Source of the DNA: an uncultured Clostridium sp.
GTDB taxonomy: Bacteria > Bacillota > Clostridia > TANB77 > CAG-508
Length of the DNA stretch: 64,000 bases
Reading direction: 5' to 3'
Assembly (NCBI GenBank): GCA_902406115.1
Contig: CABPCL010000002.1
Span: 17,271 to 81,270, forward strand
Of the stretch, positions 1,756-58,033 are shown piece after piece. Position 1 is the first letter of the stretch; each line of letters opens with the position of its first letter. Made by a program: the position numbers and the translations under genes. Under the pieces are notes generated by a model, which worked only from the letters and a program-made list of their open reading frames with translations, was not told where the DNA came from and did no database searches.

Positions 1756-3708
1756 TTAATTTTTTGCAAATGTTTCTATTTCATGTTTAATTTTCTTAAC
1801 AAACTCATCTTGAGACATTTGACCAATATCACCATCTTTTCTAGAACGTACTCCTACAGCATTTGCTTCTATTTCCTTATCTCCAACAATTAACATGTAT
1901 GGTACTTTTTGAAGTTGAGCTTCACGAATTTTATAACCAATTTTTTCGTTTCTATCATCTAATTCAACTCTAATATCTTGTTCAAATAATTTATCTGTTA
2001 ATTTTTTTGCATATTCTTTATGGTTATCTGAAATAGGCATTACTTTAACTTGTACTGGTGAAAGCCATACAGGGAAAGCTCCCTTTGTCTCCTCAATTAA
2101 GAATGAAATAAATCTATCAAATGTTCCAAGTATTGCTCTATGAATAACTATAGGTCTATGTGCTTTTCCATCTTCTCCTATATATTCTAGTTCAAATCTT
2201 TGTGGTAATAAGAAATCTAATTGACATGTTGAGATTGTAATATCATGTCCAATTGCTGTTTTTATTTGAACATCTAATTTAGGTCCATAAAAAGCGGCTT
2301 CTCCTTTTGCTTCATAAAAATCAATATTTAATTCTGTTAATATTTGTCTTAATTGACTTTCAGCATTTTCCCACATTTCATCATCATCAAAATATTTTTC
2401 TTTATTATCTTTATCTCTTAATGATAATCTAAATGTATAATCTTGGAATCCAAAGTCTTTATATACAGAAAGAATCAAATTAACAACTTCTCCAAAAACT
2501 GGTTTTATTTGTTCTGGTGTTACAAAAATATGAGCATCATTTTGGCACATTTCTCTTACTCTTTCAAGACCACATACACTACCACTTGCTTCATATCTAA
2601 AGTCATGTGCAAGCTCTCCTATTTTTATAGGTAAATCACGGTAAGAATGCATTGCATTTTTATAAATTAACATATGATGAGGACAGTTCATTGGTCTTAA
2701 AACCATCTCTTCTGTATCCATTTTCATTACTGGGAACATATCTTCTTTATAATGATCCCAATGTCCACTTGTTTTATATAATGCAACATTTGCAAGTGAT
2801 GGAGTATATACATGCTTGTATCCTAATCTAACTTCTTTTTTTAGAATATATTGTTCTAGCAATCTTCTTATTGTTGCCCCATTTGGCAAATACATTGGAA
2901 GTCCTGATCCAACAAGCTCATGTGTCATAAATAAATCTAACTGTTTACCAATTCTTCTATGATCTCTTTGCTTTGCTTCTTCAAGTAAAGCTAGGTGTTC
3001 TTCTAATTGACTAGCTTTTGGAAAAGATACACCATAGATTCTTTGAAGCATTTTATTCTTTTCACTACCTCTCCAATAAGCTCCTGAAGAAGCTAAAAGT
3101 TTGATAGCTTTGACTTTTCCTGTACTCATCAAGTGTGGGCCAGCACATAAGTCTGTAAAATCACCTTGTTTATAAAATGATATCTCTTCACCTTCTGGTA
3201 AATCATTAATTAGCTCAACTTTATATGGTTCATCTTTCATTAATTCTAAAGCTTCTGCTTTAGGTAGAGTAAATCTTTCAATTGGTAAATCTTCTTTTAT
3301 AATTTTTTTCATTTCTTCTTCAATTTTTAGTTTATCGTCATCTGAAAAAGCTCTTTCAATATCAAAGTCATAATAAAATCCCTCATCTATTGATGGTCCG
3401 ATTGCTAATTTTACTTTATCTCCAGAAATTCTTTTAATTGCCTGTGCCATAATGTGTGATGTTGTATGCCAATATGCCTTCTTTCCATCTATATCGTTAT
3501 CAAATGTTAGAATTTCAACTTGTGCGTTTTCTTCTACAATGTTATATCTTAAATCCTTTACTTCTCCATTAACTCTTCCTGCTGTAGCATTTCTTGCTAA
3601 TCCTTCACTTATTTTTTTTGCCAAGTCTAAAACTGTAATCCCTTTATCAGCTTCCATAACTGATCCATCCTTTAATACAATTTTCATTTTTTCCTCCTTT
3701 TGATGCAT
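1756..3708 (-). CDS. thrS: threonine--tRNA ligase
   Basis: 650 aa with an N-terminal TGS domain (MKIVLKDGSVMEADKGITVLDLAKKIS) and class II aaRS core motifs, followed by a C-terminal anticodon-binding domain. Confidence 0.9.
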   Translation of the reverse strand: MHQKEEKMKIVLKDGSVMEADKGITVLDLAKKISEGLARNATAGRVNGEVKDLRYNIVEENAQVEILTFDNDIDGKKAYWHTTSHIMAQAIKRISGDKVKLAIGPSIDEGFYYDFDIERAFSDDDKLKIEEEMKKIIKEDLPIERFTLPKAEALELMKDEPYKVELINDLPEGEEISFYKQGDFTDLCAGPHLMSTGKVKAIKLLASSGAYWRGSEKNKMLQRIYGVSFPKASQLEEHLALLEEAKQRDHRRIGKQLDLFMTHELVGSGLPMYLPNGATIRRLLEQYILKKEVRLGYKHVYTPSLANVALYKTSGHWDHYKEDMFPVMKMDTEEMVLRPMNCPHHMLIYKNAMHSYRDLPIKIGELAHDFRYEASGSVCGLERVREMCQNDAHIFVTPEQIKPVFGEVVNLILSVYKDFGFQDYTFRLSLRDKDNKEKYFDDDEMWENAESQLRQILTELNIDFYEAKGEAAFYGPKLDVQIKTAIGHDITISTCQLDFLLPQRFELEYIGEDGKAHRPIVIHRAILGTFDRFISFLIEETKGAFPVWLSPVQVKVMPISDNHKEYAKKLTDKLFEQDIRVELDDRNEKIGYKIREAQLQKVPYMLIVGDKEIEANAVGVRSRKDGDIGQMSQDEFVKKIKHEIETFAKN

Positions 3709-3714
3709 GTTTTT

Positions 3715-3990
3715 TGCATCAGTCTAACATATAATAAATTTATTTTATATGAGTATTTCCATGTTTATATAAAAAACGCACCCCTCCAAATAGTTTTATT
3801 TCTATTTAGAGGGGTGCATTTTATATTGCACGGTTCCACCCTTATTTTTACTTCATTTGCATTTAACGTATGCTAATCGTCTGAATTTTCAGAAACAATG
3901 AGGTAGTTTTTCAAATATGTTTATTTAAAATAGCTTCCAGCTTACAACTATTTCTCTCTTAAAACAACCTTTATTTTACTTTGTCTCATT
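3715..3990 (-). promoter_or_regulatory. T-box riboswitch leader of thrS
   Basis: On the minus strand, AAGGGTGGAACCGTGCAAT matches the T-box consensus AGGGUGGNACCGCG. It is followed by a GC hairpin, GCACCCCTCTAAAT...ATTTGGAGGGGTGC, and then a T-run (terminator/antiterminator) just 5' of the thrS RBS. Confidence 0.75.
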
Positions 3991-4035
3991 TATGTTTTTT
4001 AATATTTAAATTTTATATATTATTTTCATTATTTT

Positions 4036-5864: not shown

Positions 5865-7011
5865 TTATAATTCACTTAAAACTTTTGCTAAATATTTCAT
5901 ACTAACTAGGCTTTGGTCTAAAGTATTCCCAGTAGCTCCTACCTCTATAATACTAGCACCTTTTGCTAGCTCTTGATTATATCCACTATTTCTTAAAATA
6001 ATTGGTTTAAATAATCCAGGGTATAACTCATTTGCTTTTTCTTGAATTTTTATCGCAAACTTTAAATTTTCTTGCCAATCTTTATGTGTACCGTTCTCCA
6101 TTGCCACCTATTACAAATAATAATTGAGCAGCATATTCATCTCCAATTTTTACAGTAGGAGCATATGAGCTATCTCCAATTGCATCTCTATGAATATCAA
6201 ATACAACCTCTGTCCCTTCATTTTTATCTAGCAACTTTCCAACATTTGTATATGATCTATTGTATGATCCATTATATGAAGGATAATCATATAATGTTGT
6301 ATCATGCACTACACTGTATCCGTAATTTTTCATGTATTTTGTAAGTTCTGTTCCTACCCTAACAACAGATCTCGTTTTATCAGTTGTTCTAAAATTACCC
6401 GATTTTTTGTATGTATATTTTTCACTTGGAGTATAGCTTTCACACGTATGTGTATGATATATTAATATTTTTTTGGTATTTATTTTGACATCTGGAGTCA
6501 ACATTTGTTGTGTTAATTTTGTCTTTGTTTCATTTTTTATTTTTACTGTATTATATGTAGATGTAAATTTTTGAGGTACATTAGTTTCTTGTACTTCTGT
6601 TTTCACTCCTGTCTTTGCTTCACTTATTGTTCCCTCATCATTATCATAAATACTGTTTGAATTATTATTTTCTTCTGTTTGATTGCTTTTCTTATTATCA
6701 TTACTTTCTATACTATCCATCATACCTAATTCTACTCCCAAAACCATCCTTAGCGGTTTTTTAGAATTATTGTTTTGCGAATTATTTGATTTATTATTAA
6801 CATCTTTTATGTTTGGTATTACTGTATCTAAGCATGACAAAAGAGTATACTTATCATTATCTTCCTTAGAATTTTTTATCTTAAAACTTGAAAAATATCT
6901 AGTAAGAGCTACTACAATTGTTATAATTATAGTGATTTTTACTAGATATTTTATAACATCTTTCATTTCCACTACTGCTAAATTAATCATTTCTATTTCT
7001 CCTTTGTCCAA
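5865..7011 (-). pseudogene. spoIIP: stage II sporulation protein P, interrupted by a 1-nt frameshift near 6090-6105
   Basis: ORF 6082..7011 has an N-terminal TM segment, a low-complexity linker and the IYHTHTCESY amidase motif. ORF 5865..6107 supplies the conserved C-terminus (IIEVGATGNTLDQSLVSMKYLAKVLSEL). The two frames overlap, and the gene could instead be intact with a sequencing error. Confidence 0.7.
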
Positions 7012-8451: not shown

Positions 8452-9096
8452 CTATTCTCCAGGCATCAAATTATAATATATTGGTTCTTCATCTCTAATT
8501 CTTGTTGGCTGGCCATGTCCTGGATATACGATTGTGTCATCTGGCAATATTAATAGTTTATTTTCAATTGAATTTATAATATCTACAAAGCTACTTGTTG
8601 GTAAGTCTGTTCTCCCCCAAGTTCCTTTAAAAAGTGTATCTCCAGAAAATACCAATCTTTCTTTTTCGCAATATAAAGAACTACCCCCTGCAGTGTGTCC
8701 TGGTGTATGAAGTACTTCAAACTCCAAATCTCCCAAATGTATTAAATCTGCATCATCTACTCTAGAATCCGCTTCCAAGTGTTCCGGAGTAAGGCCAACA
8801 TGTTCTCTTAAATTAATTTCAGGATTATATAATCCTTCTGCATCATATCTATGTATTAAAATTTTACCGCCTTTTCTTTCTTTTAGTTCCTTTACTCCTC
8901 CAATATGATCTCCATGGCAATGTGTTAAATAAATGTACTTTAAATTTGCTTTTAATATATCAAGCAATTCCACAATCTCGTTTACACTTCCACCCGGATC
9001 TATAACCATTGTTTCTTTTGTTTTTTCATCTTGTACAATATAACAATTAGTTTTTTGTAAAAAACCTCCATCTACTTTTAAAACCTTTAATATCAT
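8452..9096 (-). CDS. MBL-fold metallo-hydrolase
   Basis: 214 aa with an HCHGDHIGG metal-binding motif. It is the conserved Clostridial neighbour downstream of relA. Confidence 0.75.
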   Translation of the reverse strand: MILKVLKVDGGFLQKTNCYIVQDEKTKETMVIDPGGSVNEIVELLDILKANLKYIYLTHCHGDHIGGVKELKERKGGKILIHRYDAEGLYNPEINLREHVGLTPEHLEADSRVDDADLIHLGDLEFEVLHTPGHTAGGSSLYCEKERLVFSGDTLFKGTWGRTDLPTSSFVDIINSIENKLLILPDDTIVYPGHGQPTRIRDEEPIYYNLMPGE

Positions 9097-9138
9097 ACCT
9101 CTTCACCCGTTTTTTTATTTATTATTATTATCTTAAGT

Positions 9139-9206
9139 ATGTCCCTAATCTGCCAATATGGCAGATTAAAGAACGTCCCTAACCTGCCAACTGGTCATGT
9201 TATTTC
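9139..9206. repeat. tandem pair of a ~32-nt dispersed repeat unit (copy set A)
   Basis: ATGTCCCTAATCTGCCAATATGGCAG... and ACGTCCCTAACCTGCCAACTGGTCATGTT. The same unit recurs twice at 30057-30115. Confidence 0.6.
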
Positions 9207-11398
9207 TTTCTTTTTACTTCATATACGCTGTCTATTTTTCTTAATGCCTTTAGTATTTTGTTTAATTGATCTATATTTTCTACTTCAACAGTTAATTCAG
9301 TTACAGCTATTTTTTCTTTTGTAGCTCTTGAAGAAACAGCCATTAACTTGCTTTTTGTATTTCCAACTTCAGCAATTATATCTGCTAATAAACCAGCCCT
9401 ATCATTTGCATATATTTCAATATCTACGTTATATGTTGTTTTGTCATTGTTATACCAATACACATCAATCATACGATTTTCTTCTGAAATAAGATTTTTA
9501 ACATTTACACAGTCTGCTCTATGTACTGAGACACCTCTTCCTTTTGTTATGTATCCTACTATTTCATCTCCTGGTACTGGATTACAACATTTTGAAAGCT
9601 TTACTAAGCAATTATCAATTCCTTTTACTTCAATTCCGCTCTGTGAAGTTTTTGTCTTATGAACTTTCTCTTTTGATAATTCCTCTAGTGTTTTTTCTAG
9701 ATTTTCTTCATGGTGTACTTTTCTATATTCTTCAAGAATTCTAGCAATAATCTTTCCTGATGATATTGATCCAAACCCTACACCTGCATACATATCATCT
9801 ACTGAATTAAATTTATATCTATTAAGTGCTGCAGAAACAAATTCTGGTTTAAACAAATCATCATATTTCATTCCTATTTTTTTAAGTTCTTTATCTATTA
9901 AGTCTTTTCCTTTTTCTATGTTCTCTTCTCTTTCATTCTTTTTAAACCAAGAAGATATTTTATTTTTTGCACCAGAACTCTTTACAAATTTTAGCCAATC
10001 TCTGCTTGGTCCTTTTGATTGATCTGATGTTATTATTTCTACAATATCACCATTTTTTAATTTAGTTATAATAGGCATCATTTTACTATTAATTTTACAT
10101 CCAACCATATGATGACCTATTTCTTCATGAATTTGATATGCAAAGTCAATCGGTGTACATTCTTTTGGAAGTACTTTTATTGCCCCTTTAGGTGTAAATA
10201 CATATACTTCATCTTCAAAAAGCTCTTTTTTTAGTGTTTGCATAAACTCTTCAGGATCTTGCATATCTTTTTGCCATTCCAAGGTTTCCCTTATCCAAGC
10301 CAATTTATCTTCTTCTACTTTAACATTCTCTTTTTTTCCCTTAGCAAAACTACTCTCCTTATAAGCCCAATGTGCTGCTATACCAAATTCTGCAATTCTA
10401 TGCATATCCCATGTACGAATTTGAACTTCAAAAGGAGTCCCCTTAGGTCCAATTAAGGTTGTGTGTAAAGATTGGTACATATTTGGTTTTGGCACTGCAA
10501 TATAGTCTTTAAATCTTCCTGGCATAGGACTATATAACTCATGAACAATTCCTAATGCAGCATAACAATCCTTAACAGAATTTACAATAATTCTTAATGC
10601 AAATAAATCATATACTTGATCTAATGTAATGTTATCTCTTTTCATTTTTCTATATATACTATACAAATGTTTTGCACGTCCTGTTATTTCAGCATCAATC
10701 TTCTGTTTCTTTAATTCTGCTCTTATTTGATCCAAAATCAAATCTATAAACTTAAGTCTTTCTTCCCTTTTTTTATCTATTCCTTCCACAATCTCTCTAT
10801 AATCTTCTGGATATAGATATTTAAATGACAAATCTTCCAATTCCCATTTTAAAGAATATACACCTAAACGGTTAGCAAGTGGAGCATATAAGTTCATTGT
10901 TTCTGTTGCATTTGCTATTTGTCTATCACGACTTAAATATTTTAATGTTCTCATATTATGAAGTCTATCGGCTAATTTTATTAATATAACACGTATATCT
11001 TTTCCCATAGCTAGGAACATTTTTCTATAATTTTCGACTTGCTGTTCTTCAATACTTGTATAACTAAGCTTACCAAGTTTAGTTACTCCATCTACCATCT
11101 CTGCTATTTCTTGGTTAAATTCATGTGCTAGATCTTCTTTAGTAGTGTCTGTATCTTCTACAACATCGTGCAACAGTGCCGCACAAATTGTATTTTCATC
11201 CATTCCCAATGTTGCAAGAGTATAAGCAACCTGTATAGGGTGAATTATATAAGGTTCACCTGATCTTCTTAATTGGTCACCATGTTTGTTTTTTGCATAT
11301 TCATATGCTTTCATTATTGTTTTTGTATCACATCTTCTTTGTTTCTTTTTCATAACAGATATTATATCTTCTATTGTTGCATCTTTATATTCTGACAT
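9200..11398 (-). CDS. relA: bifunctional (p)ppGpp synthetase/hydrolase
   Basis: 732 aa with an HD domain (HDVVEDT), a RelA/SpoT synthetase domain, a TGS domain and a C-terminal ACT domain. Confidence 0.9.
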   Translation of the reverse strand: MSEYKDATIEDIISVMKKKQRRCDTKTIMKAYEYAKNKHGDQLRRSGEPYIIHPIQVAYTLATLGMDENTICAALLHDVVEDTDTTKEDLAHEFNQEIAEMVDGVTKLGKLSYTSIEEQQVENYRKMFLAMGKDIRVILIKLADRLHNMRTLKYLSRDRQIANATETMNLYAPLANRLGVYSLKWELEDLSFKYLYPEDYREIVEGIDKKREERLKFIDLILDQIRAELKKQKIDAEITGRAKHLYSIYRKMKRDNITLDQVYDLFALRIIVNSVKDCYAALGIVHELYSPMPGRFKDYIAVPKPNMYQSLHTTLIGPKGTPFEVQIRTWDMHRIAEFGIAAHWAYKESSFAKGKKENVKVEEDKLAWIRETLEWQKDMQDPEEFMQTLKKELFEDEVYVFTPKGAIKVLPKECTPIDFAYQIHEEIGHHMVGCKINSKMMPIITKLKNGDIVEIITSDQSKGPSRDWLKFVKSSGAKNKISSWFKKNEREENIEKGKDLIDKELKKIGMKYDDLFKPEFVSAALNRYKFNSVDDMYAGVGFGSISSGKIIARILEEYRKVHHEENLEKTLEELSKEKVHKTKTSQSGIEVKGIDNCLVKLSKCCNPVPGDEIVGYITKGRGVSVHRADCVNVKNLISEENRMIDVYWYNNDKTTYNVDIEIYANDRAGLLADIIAEVGNTKSKLMAVSSRATKEKIAVTELTVEVENIDQLNKILKALRKIDSVYEVKRKK

Positions 11399-11455: not shown

Positions 11456-13141
11456 TTAAATAGATAATTTCATATCTTTTATAGTAATTTGAATATTATC
11501 ATTTCCATTAAATGAATTAATATCTAACGTTCCAACTATGTCAACTTTATCATCTAATAGGTATCTATTTGATAATTCTCCCATATTAAACCCAATTGCA
11601 TCTATAATGTAATTATCATCTTTTAATGTTAATTTTAAATGTTTTCCATCTGACAATGCTCTTATAGAATTTATTTTTAGATTTTTAAACAAAAATAGTG
11701 GATTTTTATTAGATTCTCCGTAAGGCTCTAAAAGTTGCAAACTTTTAACGTTATCAATTTTAATATCTTTTAATGACACTTCCTCGTCAATACTTATAAT
11801 TGGAATTATATCACTAATATGTTTATCTTTTGCAAATTGTTCAAATTCTTCTTTAAACTTTTCAAAATTTTCTTTTTTTATTGTAATGCCTATAGCCATT
11901 GAATGTCCACCAAATTTTTCTACATAGGTACTACACTTAGTTAATGCATCATGTAGATCAAAACCTGGTATACTTCTTCCAGATCCTTTTCCAATTTCAT
12001 CTTCAAAGCAGACCAAAATACTAGGTTTAAAATACATATCTGTTACCTTTGATGAAACAATTCCAATTATTCCATGATGCCAACCTTCATCTCCAAGAAC
12101 AATGCATGTCCTATCTTTTTCTGTCTTTTCTATTTTTTGTATAACTTGTTCAAAAATTTCTTTTTCCTTTGATTGTCGTTCCTGATTGAATTTATTTAAT
12201 TTATCTGCAATTTTAGATGCTTCATTTTTATCATCGCAAAGAAATAAGTCTAAAGCATCTTGTTGATGTCCCATTCTCCCACAAGCATTTATTCTTGGTG
12301 CTACTCCGAAGGAAATCATTCCAGAATCTATTTTTCTAAATCCTATACTTTCTATTAACGTACGTAGACCAATATTTTTTGTAACTTCAACTAATTTAAG
12401 TCCTAATTTTGCAATAACTCTATTTTCATCAACTAAAGGAACAATATCTGATATAGTTCCCACACAAACCAAGTCTAAATACTTTAGATACTCTTTTTCA
12501 TCTAATCCTAGTTTTATAGCTAATGCTTGTATAAGTTTAAACACAACGCCAACTCCGGCTAATTGGTTAAATGGGTATTGGTTATCTTTTCTTTTTGCAT
12601 CTATTACTGCATAAGCTCTTGGTAGTTCCTCTGCTGGTTCATGATGATCTGTTATAATAGTTTCAATTCCTATGCTATTAGCATAATCAACTTCATCAAT
12701 TCCTGAAATACCGCAGTCAACTGTAATCATTAATTGATATCCTTGGTTTCTTATATTTTTTAGTGCCTCTTTATTCAATCCATATCCTTCATCTAGACGA
12801 TTTGGTATATAAGAACCTACCTCCATTCCTCTTCCTACTAGGAATTTTTTTAATACTGTAATACTCGTAATTCCGTCAGCATCATAATCTCCATATATAA
12901 CGATTTTTTCTTTCTTTTCAATTGCGGTTAAAATTCTTTCAACAGCCTTTTCCATATCTGGCATTAAAAATGGATCATGAAAATCATTTCTTGTTGGATT
13001 TAAAAATTTAGGCATATCTTCATTTATATCAATATCTCTGCCTACAATAATCTTTGCTAGTAATTCACTAATCTTATATTCCTTAACTAATTTCTTTACT
13101 CTGTTTTCATCTACTTCACAACATTCCCATTTTTTATTCAT
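11456..13141 (-). CDS. recJ: single-stranded-DNA-specific exonuclease RecJ
   Basis: 561 aa with DHH motifs (DYDADGITS, ITDHHEP) and a DHHA1 region. The recJ-relA adjacency is conserved. Confidence 0.85.
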   Translation of the reverse strand: MNKKWECCEVDENRVKKLVKEYKISELLAKIIVGRDIDINEDMPKFLNPTRNDFHDPFLMPDMEKAVERILTAIEKKEKIVIYGDYDADGITSITVLKKFLVGRGMEVGSYIPNRLDEGYGLNKEALKNIRNQGYQLMITVDCGISGIDEVDYANSIGIETIITDHHEPAEELPRAYAVIDAKRKDNQYPFNQLAGVGVVFKLIQALAIKLGLDEKEYLKYLDLVCVGTISDIVPLVDENRVIAKLGLKLVEVTKNIGLRTLIESIGFRKIDSGMISFGVAPRINACGRMGHQQDALDLFLCDDKNEASKIADKLNKFNQERQSKEKEIFEQVIQKIEKTEKDRTCIVLGDEGWHHGIIGIVSSKVTDMYFKPSILVCFEDEIGKGSGRSIPGFDLHDALTKCSTYVEKFGGHSMAIGITIKKENFEKFKEEFEQFAKDKHISDIIPIISIDEEVSLKDIKIDNVKSLQLLEPYGESNKNPLFLFKNLKINSIRALSDGKHLKLTLKDDNYIIDAIGFNMGELSNRYLLDDKVDIVGTLDINSFNGNDNIQITIKDMKLSI

Positions 13142-16860: not shown

Positions 16861-17217
16861 GGGGATGTATTTGGTTTCGACAGTATCCCAGAAGTATAAA
16901 TAGCGAGTAGTGGATGGTTGCTTTGGCCACTATAAAAAAGCAAAATTAAATTATAAACGCTGATAATAGAGAATTAGCATACGCTGCCTAGTTGCGGCGT
17001 CGTCTTACCTTTACTTCCCACGGTTTAGGATAAGGCGTCAAGAAGTGGGAAACGAACCAATTTGTTGTCATGCAAATTGTTGGTATTTATATGACTACCT
17101 AATAAATAACTTTGTTTGTTAAGTTACTAATTAGGGAATTTTAATAACAAACTGCACTCGGAGAATTTTATATGGAAAGAATATTGGACAGGAGTTCGAC
17201 TCTCCTCATCTCCACCA
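16861..17217 (+). ncRNA. ssrA: tmRNA (SsrA)
   Basis: 5' end GGGGATGTATTTGGTTTCGACAG and 3' end GGACAGGAGTTCGACTCTCCTCATCTCCACCA (tRNA-like T-arm plus CCA). The internal tag ORF ...GCTGATAATAGAGAATTAGCATACGCTGCCTAG translates to ADNRELAYAA*. Confidence 0.9.
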
Positions 17218-17319: not shown

Positions 17320-17395
17320 AGGGGTATAGTGTCAATGGTTAGCACGATGGTCTCCAAAACCACAAGTCTGAGTTCGAGTCTTAGTACCCCTGCCA
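17320..17395 (+). tRNA. tRNA-Trp (anticodon CCA)
   Basis: Acceptor stem AGGGGTA/TACCCCT, anticodon loop CTCCAAA, T-loop GTTCGAGTC, and an encoded CCA. Confidence 0.8.
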
Positions 17396-55967: not shown

Positions 55968-56393
55968 TTAATTTATATTTATTCTTTTTATTAAACCTGT
56001 TGAAGAATAATCGAAAGTAACATTATATTGTGTTCCTGCGTTAGTATTACCAAGATAATTTGATATATTTTTTTGATCAGTACCATTTTGTGTGTCAGCA
56101 ACATTACCCGAGTTACTTCCTCCTTTATTCACAACAATTTGCTTAGAAGTATCATCCTTATTTACTATATTATGAGTTCTTACTGTTTGTAATAAAGCTT
56201 TTACATTAGATCCGCTTTGAGTTCCTTCATATTTGATAAATTCTGAATTATACGCTGTGATTTCTTGTTGTGACATATTAGCACTTTGTATTGTTTGTTG
56301 TGCTGTTGTATAAATATACATTCCTATTCCTATAATTGCTATTGAAAGTAATATTGCTCCTGCAATAATTAATGCTTTTGACGCATTTTCCAT
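55968..56393 (-). CDS. N-anchored pilin-like protein (MENASKALI family)
   Basis: 141 aa starting MENASKALIIAGAILLSIAIIGIGMYIY, with a nearly identical N-terminus to the genes at 56981 and 57488. Confidence 0.45.
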   Translation of the reverse strand: MENASKALIIAGAILLSIAIIGIGMYIYTTAQQTIQSANMSQQEITAYNSEFIKYEGTQSGSNVKALLQTVRTHNIVNKDDTSKQIVVNKGGSNSGNVADTQNGTDQKNISNYLGNTNAGTQYNVTFDYSSTGLIKRININ

Positions 56394-56461
56394 AAAAAAT
56401 TCCTCCTTAATTTTTACTTTTGTTTTTTATTAATTTTATATTATCTTTTAATAATAAAATC

Positions 56462-56980: not shown

Positions 56981-57472
56981 TTAAATTTCTACAAATTCCA
57001 TATAACTCACTCTATTAGTATTTGTATTTATGTAACAAACTGTGCATCTATAATATTTAGAGTTTTTTCCATCTGACATTAAAGAATTTTCTTTTATTAA
57101 ATTTACTAAGTCCTCGTTACTTTTTTTTTCTAAATTTCTATTATTTTTTATATCAATTCGAATATACCTCGTCTTATTATCTTCCTTTTCTAACCCATAA
57201 TTTTTATTATTTTCTTTAGCAAGATTTGCAAGGCTAACAATATCGTGAATTGTACATTTGATAGGTTCTACTTTTCCCTCATCATTTGTTCTACTGCCAT
57301 AAAATTTTAGAAATTGATTATTAAACTGTGCTATTTGAGTATCTTCCATTCTTTTTGTATTATCAGCACTGTATTGTCCAAAAACATTAAACAGATATAC
57401 TCCTATAGATATTATCATAACTCCAATTAAAACTTCTGCTGCCATAATTAGTGCTTTTGATGCATTTTCCAT
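56981..57472 (-). CDS. N-anchored pilin-like protein (MENASKALI family)
   Basis: 163 aa starting MENASKALIMAAEVLIGVMIISIGVYLF, with C-terminus ...YYRCTVCYINTNTNRVSYMEFVEI. Confidence 0.45.
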   Translation of the reverse strand: MENASKALIMAAEVLIGVMIISIGVYLFNVFGQYSADNTKRMEDTQIAQFNNQFLKFYGSRTNDEGKVEPIKCTIHDIVSLANLAKENNKNYGLEKEDNKTRYIRIDIKNNRNLEKKSNEDLVNLIKENSLMSDGKNSKYYRCTVCYINTNTNRVSYMEFVEI

Positions 57473-57487
57473 AAGTAGTCCCTCCTA

Positions 57488-58006
57488 TCACTGTTCTACA
57501 AATTTCATGTATGTAACTCTACCGTTGTTTTGATCATATTTTATTTGTGTACATTTAAATAATTTACTTTTGAATTCTGTATATGATGATTTTAAATTAT
57601 TACATTCATCTGTTCCTTGTTCTGAATTTGAAATAGCTATCTCTATGCTTTTTCGATCTGCTCCTATTTCATTTATTGACTTTATCTTATTTGAAAAATA
57701 CGTTGTTTTTGCAATTCCTTTGGTAGTAACATCTATATTTACTTCTGTATATCCTTTTTCACTTGCTTGTGTTTTGTTATAGTCTTCTTGTAAATTTGCA
57801 AGTGATAATAATTCACTGCCATAAATTACCCTGTTATAGTCTTCAAATTTCTTTGAATATTCTCCAAATTTGCCCTCTTCATCTACATCTGTTTTTGTTT
57901 GTTGAACATCTGCAAATTGATTATACATAAATACTAATGCTCCAATTATTAAAAGAGAAATTAATAAAGATCCAGCCATAATTAATGCTTTTGATGCATT
58001 TTCCAT
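57488..58006 (-). CDS. N-anchored pilin-like protein (MENASKALI family)
   Basis: 172 aa starting MENASKALIMAGSLLISLLIIGALVFMY, with C-terminus ...KCTQIKYDQNNGRVTYMKFVEQ. Confidence 0.45.
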   Translation of the reverse strand: MENASKALIMAGSLLISLLIIGALVFMYNQFADVQQTKTDVDEEGKFGEYSKKFEDYNRVIYGSELLSLANLQEDYNKTQASEKGYTEVNIDVTTKGIAKTTYFSNKIKSINEIGADRKSIEIAISNSEQGTDECNNLKSSYTEFKSKLFKCTQIKYDQNNGRVTYMKFVEQ

Positions 58007-58033
58007 ATTAATATTTCCTTTCTAACCTTTATA

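Follow-up and report, generated by a model that had tools for sequence, protein, structure and literature searches.

Both tandem pairs of a short conserved sequence found in two distant gaps between genes of an uncultured Clostridium sp. are probably degenerate copies of a lineage-specific family of palindromic extragenic repeats resembling REP, REPIN and MITE elements; we give this reading a probability of roughly 0.6. It is preferred because the conserved arms sit in inverted repeats, because the same gaps are empty or otherwise filled in relatives, and because relatives hold several copies of versions of their own within 15–20 kb, in both orientations. The family is likened to REP, REPIN and MITE elements because of its extragenic position after stop codons, its occurrence in clusters or doublets, its species-specific versions with a common core and its unrelated neighbouring genes. 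The window, i.e. the whole stretch of 64,000 nt that was analysed and to which all positions refer, has a GC content of 26–30% and contains sporulation genes; together with the OLE RNA and the tmRNA described below, these features indicate an uncultured, spore-forming representative of the Clostridia.

An exact search of the window for GTCCCTNNNNTGCCA (GTCCCT-N4-TGCCA, + strand) gave matches at 9141, 9175, 30059 and 30093 only. In 100 dinucleotide shuffles the same motif was expected with a mean of 0.01 and never occurred four times. Thus the tandem pairs in two distant gaps that were described in the original prediction are real. The start-to-start spacing is 34 nt in the pair of the relA-MBL gap as well as in that of the mutS-udk gap. 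A weight matrix derived from the four 18-mers scored 28.8–34.2 bits for the copies themselves and below 14 bits for the rest of the 64 kb, and the additional matches obtained by allowing two mismatches in GTCCCT-N4-TGCCA were at chance level. Read on the strand of the genes, the conserved piece is an arm of 15–18 nt, TTGGCA-N4-AGGGAC-RT. Identity among the four arms is 12–14 out of 15 positions, compared to 4–9 out of 16–19 in most flanks. All 44 specified positions of the gene-direction arms are intact across the four copies, whereas the inverted partners of the arms have decayed. The repeat had been described as a unit of 32 nt; a longer unit, AACATGACMAGTTGGCA...AGGGAC, is indeed common to the copies at 9173–9203 (A1) and 30057–30087 (B2), but all four copies have only about 15–18 nt in common. 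The palindrome CTGCCAATATGGCAG is present at 9151–9165, as described. Sequence likeness of another kind was seen in three neighbouring small genes, whose 5′ ends are alike over ~99 nt (56309–56407, 57388–57486 and 57922–58020; 70–72% identity; MENASKALI...) and which look like paralogous genes for small membrane or pilin-like proteins.

According to the open reading frame listing and Pfam, the gene context is as given earlier, with every gene on the minus strand. At locus A relA (9200–11398) is followed by a gene for an MBL-fold hydrolase (8452–9096) and then by hisS, and at locus B mutS, ending at 30097, is followed by a PRK/uridine-kinase-like (udk-like) gene (28452–30029). Pfam revealed no common function of the genes flanking the two loci. 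Arm A1 (TTGGCAGGTTAGGGACGT, 9173..9190, minus strand, 34.2 bits) begins 9 nt past the relA stop codon (9200–9202). Its inverted partner arm (GTTCTTTAATCTGCCA, 9159..9174, minus strand) pairs either with A1, over 14 bp with the loop CGU, or alternatively with arm A2 (TTGGCAGATTAGGGACAT, 9139..9156, minus strand, 33.1 bits) with the loop UAU, so that the gene strand reads TGGCAGGTTAGGGA-CGT-TCTTTAATCTGCCA-TAT-TGGCAGATTAGGGAC as a series of alternating inverted repeats. The remnant of a further inverted arm (AACATGACCAGT, 9191..9203, minus strand) overlaps the relA stop codon, and an (ATA)n microsatellite (9115..9132, minus strand) is located just downstream of the element, before the MBL gene.

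At locus B, arm B1 (ATGGCAGAATAGGGACGT, 30091..30108, minus strand, 31.4 bits) holds the last three mutS codons together with the TAG stop codon (30097–30099). It is followed by a degenerate inverted arm (AGGAAAACATGACAAG, 30075..30090, minus strand), with which a significant hairpin is no longer formed, and by arm B2 (TTGGCATATAAGGGACAT, 30057..30074, minus strand, 28.8 bits), which ends 16 nt upstream of the AGGAGG ribosome binding site (RBS) of the udk-like gene. An overlap of the pair with the last codons of the upstream gene, claimed for both loci, therefore applies to mutS, while at relA the stop codon alone is covered. The mutS 3′ end derived from arm B1 reads ATG GCA GAA TAG; in the relatives L107 and L108 the gene ends with ...AGT TAA. 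On the + strand, open reading frames at 9139–9324 and 30057–30155 (MSLICQ...VP(N/I)LP) start at an ATG inside the downstream arms, and the two arm differences are synonymous in that frame. These antisense frames were rejected as chance occurrences, since they lack an RBS and the ATG is absent in the relative L025.

Two genes of the window are interrupted. A 1-nt insertion (GGCTCAAGTGCGG) splits mutS at 30697–30790 (minus strand) into frames of 660 aa and about 191–199 aa, at a site where relatives with an intact 870-aa MutS read GGCACAA-TGCGG. Ten further assemblies of the species and L111 show the identical split, which is thus a feature of the whole species and no assembly artefact; it could reflect a naturally defective mismatch repair or an unusual type of split gene. 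The spoIIP gene (about 5865–7011, minus strand) is present as two overlapping frames (302 and 78 aa) in all strains of the species (L001–L006) and in L024, and as frames of 263 and 107 aa in L027, while it is intact in L025 (372 aa) and L026 (368 aa).

Homologues of graded identity to both downstream proteins were traced to their contigs, and the corresponding gaps were aligned. The relA-MBL gap comprises only 21 nt in L024 (MBL protein 94% identical) and 9 nt in L026 (81% protein identity), the element being absent from both. A diverged but alignable element is present in L025 (89%), and L027 (77%) carries a diverged, poorly alignable palindrome with a GGGAC core. In the mutS-udk gap the element is absent from L108 (83%; 50 nt), and L107 (83%) and L109 (77%) have palindromes of other sequence. 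Conservation in the orthologous gaps of related species, proposed in the original prediction as a check, was thus not found, and the pattern differs from the conservation expected of an operator or a leader RNA.

The other relatives have their own versions, which recur in 2–3 occupied gaps per 15–21 kb. In L025 a second copy lies between the T-box terminator and the RBS of thrS; 22 nt of it are identical to the relA-gap copy, and it is inverted relative to the gene. A thrS-leader copy at the equivalent position in L027 matches the relA-gap copy over 35 nt at 97%. In L107 four 29-nt units of the form TTGCCAATGGGGACGGAGG(T/A)TTTTGGCAA make up two inverted doublets in adjacent gaps, each directly between stop codon and RBS and each forming a 29-bp hairpin (z −10.7 and −13.4). 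L109 has copies in three gaps, built of GTTTGGGGACAGGC and CCGACA...TGTCGG and including inverted doublets, and a contig end of L015, a metagenome-assembled genome of the Clostridiaceae, carries a palindromic unit of 35 nt in tandem, TGGCACATTAGGGAC-A-GTCCCTGTTGTGTCAC. All versions have an (A/G)GGGAC(A/G) core in common, mostly beside TGGCA, TGCCA or TGTCA stems, and their homology is suggested by this core, whose shortness counts against the family reading. Over these loci, GGGAC/GTCCC is about 5-fold denser in intergenic (1.05 per kb) than in coding DNA (0.22 per kb). L109 additionally contains, at 12301–12588, a non-coding MITE-like element of ~290 nt with 27-nt terminal inverted repeats (AAAATAATTGTTTTTACAAGGTGTGAC), which adjoins GGGAC-core repeats. 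In the window the thrS T-box leader is located at 3700–4001 (minus strand); it was missed by the default Rfam scan because its score of 69.4 bits is below the gathering score of 93. Just before the thrS RBS the window has a hairpin, TGATGCA-N7-TGCATCA, where L025 and L027 have the GGGAC-core repeat.

The two loci of the window resemble each other also outside the arms. Twelve of the 16 nt 5′ of arm A1 match the 16 nt 5′ of arm B2, and the similarity continues downstream of the second arm (ACATA-CTTAAGATAA vs ACATAGCTTAAAATAA). Such similarity in the flanks is expected if the whole segment was copied, and the alignment suggests a common origin of a segment of ~85 nt. A one-off duplication or gene conversion of this segment between the two gaps, with no family, mobility or function involved, would agree with these flanks and with the low number of loci, as only two were detected in about 84 kb of the source species (the window and an extension of ~20 kb, which is without a further arm) and in the metagenome scan. 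The same low number, together with the absence of a transposase among the called genes near the copies, counts against a repeat family. Nevertheless, we consider a single copying event very improbable, because GGGAC-core palindromes that are related but distinct are found in these gaps and in others of at least five other genomes and because L025 and this species have orthologous copies in the relA gap, so that this copy predates the species.

The pair pattern gave 17 matches among 185,579 species representatives, which, L015 excepted, were chance matches or tandem repeats of an unrelated kind and came mostly from GC-rich genomes; the source species was not among them. With the longer unit the metagenome scan returned this species' own loci at relA and mutS and GC-rich chance matches only, using a pattern so strict that it misses the mutS locus of strains with TGACAGG. 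All 79 single matches of a 14-base arm pattern to viral contigs were chance or coding matches, which gives no link to phages. Among the genes called in the fetched loci, which represent a small part of each genome, there was neither a transposase close to any copy nor a gene of the PF01797 type (RAYT, Y1 transposase). A description of the motif was not found in the literature.

RNA folding of locus A on the gene strand yielded −25.2 kcal/mol (z −4.71) compared to −19.0 kcal/mol on the other strand, and z −4.07 was obtained with DNA parameters. Its partner arm departs from the perfect complement only by C-to-T changes, which result in G·U pairs in the gene-strand transcript. Locus B gave no significant fold with RNA (z −0.51) or DNA parameters (z −0.75), and 7 of the 12 pairs of the consensus hairpin are broken in this copy. 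The window species, L025 and L015 have a two-stem consensus hairpin in common, with one compensatory pair among four sequences. In every asymmetric case the strand with GGGAC forms the more stable fold of the two, owing to the G·U pairs (−25.2/−19.0, −20.2/−15.6, −21.1/−15.9 and −45.5/−31.7). No intrinsic terminator was detected in the relA-MBL and mutS-udk gaps, and hence the elements are probably transcribed; in relatives they often stop a few nt short of the RBS. These four points, the better-folding strand, the C-to-T changes, the missing terminators and the proximity to the RBS, would be explained if the hairpins or arms were selected cis-acting mRNA elements, i.e. if a stem-loop between stop codon and RBS made the neighbouring cistrons differ in stability, processing or translation, possibly via a GGGAC-binding protein. 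We regard this explanation as doubtful, given the lack of a significant fold at locus B, the single compensatory pair and the orthologous gaps of L024, L026 and L108, in which the element is missing. Furthermore, the better-folding strand of the thrS copy in L025 is antisense to the gene, and for both gaps Rfam 15 returned nothing at the gathering score and only noise in sensitive scans (E about 1–10), i.e. no match even at E ≤ 10. Elsewhere in the window a full-length OLE (ornate large extremophilic) RNA was identified at 22783–23382 (minus strand, 379 bits), here in a human-gut organism, as well as a tmRNA (16861–17217) and a tRNA (17320–17392).

The TTGGCA of arm A2 can be read as a −35 hexamer followed after 18 nt by GATAAT (9127–9132), and that of arm B2 as a possible −35 hexamer followed after 16 nt by TAAAAT (30047–30052), each with a sigma-70-like match of 10/12. 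Matches of this kind at the downstream arms were no commoner than in shuffled sequence, and the description of the gaps as promoter-proximal is accordingly only weakly borne out. Together with the intact 44 arm positions between varying flanks and partner arms, the identical spacing at both loci and the uniformity of the arms among strains, the overlap of the downstream arm with a −35-like hexamer would be compatible with an operator pair, in which cooperative binding of a regulator to TGGCA-N4-AGGGAC sites 34 bp apart controls MBL hydrolase-hisS and the udk-like gene. The uniformity carries no statistical weight: the arms are free of polymorphism across more than 20 strains, but with 3 variable sites this is not significant (P about 0.2). 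An operator pair appears unlikely, as the sites are not kept upstream of the orthologues in relatives with 77–94% identical proteins, where a regulon operator normally would be. Moreover, the arm lacks palindromic symmetry, a spacing of 34 bp does not correspond to an integral number of helical turns, the functions of the flanking genes are unrelated, and the promoter-like matches do not exceed those in shuffles.

Known binding sites were considered as well. As a sigma-54 promoter (TGGCAC-N5-TTGCW, −24/−12) the arms fail in either alignment: with TGGCA aligned, all four copies have AC in place of GC and GG in place of TT, and with GG aligned, AC is found where the −12 element requires GC. By eye, none of the consensus sequences of CodY, cre, Rex, LexA, AbrB, the VirR-box and SigE/SigK fits all four copies, and the integron attC core (GTTRRRY) fits copy A1 only. 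Among the three options of the original prediction, a short REP-like dispersed repeat fits best, while the operator pair and the cis-regulatory RNA fail on conservation in orthologous gaps and no Rfam family was matched.

Within the species the arms of both loci do not differ between strains, and variation is confined to the flanks and the (ATA)n run. Because the length of this run varies between strains, the relA-MBL gap measures 103, 108 or 114 nt. The MBL protein is unchanged on many human-gut metagenome contigs. Upstream of recJ one strain (L004, 4346–5788) carries a gene for a UPF0236-family transposase, an insertion that the other strains do not have.

Small non-coding repeats of intergenic regions are known from Firmicutes and from Neisseria, such as BOX, RUP and SPRITE elements of Streptococcus and the Correia elements, and they can modify the 3′ ends of genes, give rise to hairpins in the mRNA and supply promoter hexamers. 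The elements described here resemble such MITE-type repeats by their small size, non-coding nature and location within intergenic gaps; this likeness refers to their general description, and similarity in sequence is not expected. Terminal inverted repeats with a target-site duplication, however, were not definable in the window.

A closer parallel is found in REP elements and REPIN doublets, the repetitive extragenic palindromes associated with RAYT (Bertels & Rainey, PMC3116915; Nunvar/Di Nocera families, PMC3733652). Like these, the elements are short (about 30–35 nt), imperfect extragenic palindromes between co-directional genes, often right past a stop codon. They occur as singles, as clusters or, in L107, as inverted doublets folding into long hairpins, and they have species-specific versions with variable presence at orthologous sites. 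An imperfect stem-loop palindrome of 20–40 nt, as is typical of REPs, is present at locus A in the form of the 14-bp hairpin and has become degenerate at locus B. REPs have a conserved, unpaired GTAG at one end and a single-copy RAYT gene with repeats on its flanks. In contrast, the arms have no GTAG tag and end with ...AGGGAC(G/A)T, the single GTAG in B1 being at a position that is not conserved, and no RAYT or other transposase was seen among the genes called in these loci. In REPINs the replicating unit is an inverted doublet, whereas the pairs of the window are arranged head-to-tail, and inverted doublets were found in the relatives L107 and L109. Furthermore, copy number appears low in this species (two loci in about 84 kb; tens to hundreds of extragenic copies are typical of a genome with REPs or REPINs), and the host is a low-GC Firmicute, while the described families are mostly proteobacterial. 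A head-to-tail arrangement is unusual among described REP families (PMC3733652).

The superfamily of CGTC-tagged REPs, in which CGTC is often changed to TGTC and which has no dedicated transposase (Di Nocera et al. 2013, PMC3733652), was also compared. These REPs have an 8–9-bp stem starting with A-T pairs, a loop of 4–5 nt and a CCA tail, mostly form head-to-head dimers, and are found in Proteobacteria, Chlorobi, Bacteroidetes, Spirochaetes and Thermotogae (PMC3733652). On the + strand all four arms of the window begin with (C/T)GTC (two with CGTC and two with TGTC), followed by a stem starting with A/T. In the window the stem is longer (10–14 bp) and the loop shorter (3 nt), a CCA tail is not apparent and the units are head-to-tail; the resemblance may be coincidental.

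If both pairs belong to a REP-like family, this family would be spread over a clade of spore-forming gut Clostridia of low GC content, in the short gaps that separate co-directional housekeeping genes. Its basic module would be a 15–16-nt arm, TGGCA-N4-(A/G)GGGAC, with an inverted partner, and head-to-tail modules would give the 34-nt period. By analogy with REP/RAYT and IS200/IS605 systems and their Y1 transposase (PMC3116915, PMC3733652), the modules may have been spread or homogenised as single-stranded hairpins by some enzyme or by recombination. In this species the family is presumably old and decaying. Any effect on the host would be a by-product: a stem-loop past the stop codon may protect or modulate the polycistronic mRNA, the TTGGCA hexamer may seed a weak internal promoter as a −35 element, or the C-terminal codons of MutS may be replaced.

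The contrast between intact arms and decayed partners would fit selection on the arm sequence itself. It is conceivable, although we are sceptical, that the gene-direction arm TGGCA-N4-AGGGAC has been exapted and that a putative protein reads the GGGAC core on DNA or mRNA throughout the clade. This idea is based on the conservation at 44 of 44 positions, the invariance in more than 20 strains, the frameshifted mutS and the decaying partners. Candidates for such a protein would be a repeat-mobilising enzyme or a factor setting the expression of the downstream cistron. If exaptation proved true, the GGGAC core common to all versions would be the recognition site of that protein, and the two together would constitute a new repeat-plus-protein system of gut Clostridia.

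If the REP-like reading is true, the value of the finding is mostly one for annotation: it would draw attention to a family of small palindromic repeats that has not been described so far, in uncultured gut Clostridia of low GC content, a group for which repeats of this kind are poorly catalogued. They break assemblies, change the 3′ ends of genes, as with the last codons of MutS, and can mimic regulatory motifs in comparative scans, which calls for caution against reading the motif as an operator. The family would gain greater importance if its GGGAC core were the target of a dedicated protein.
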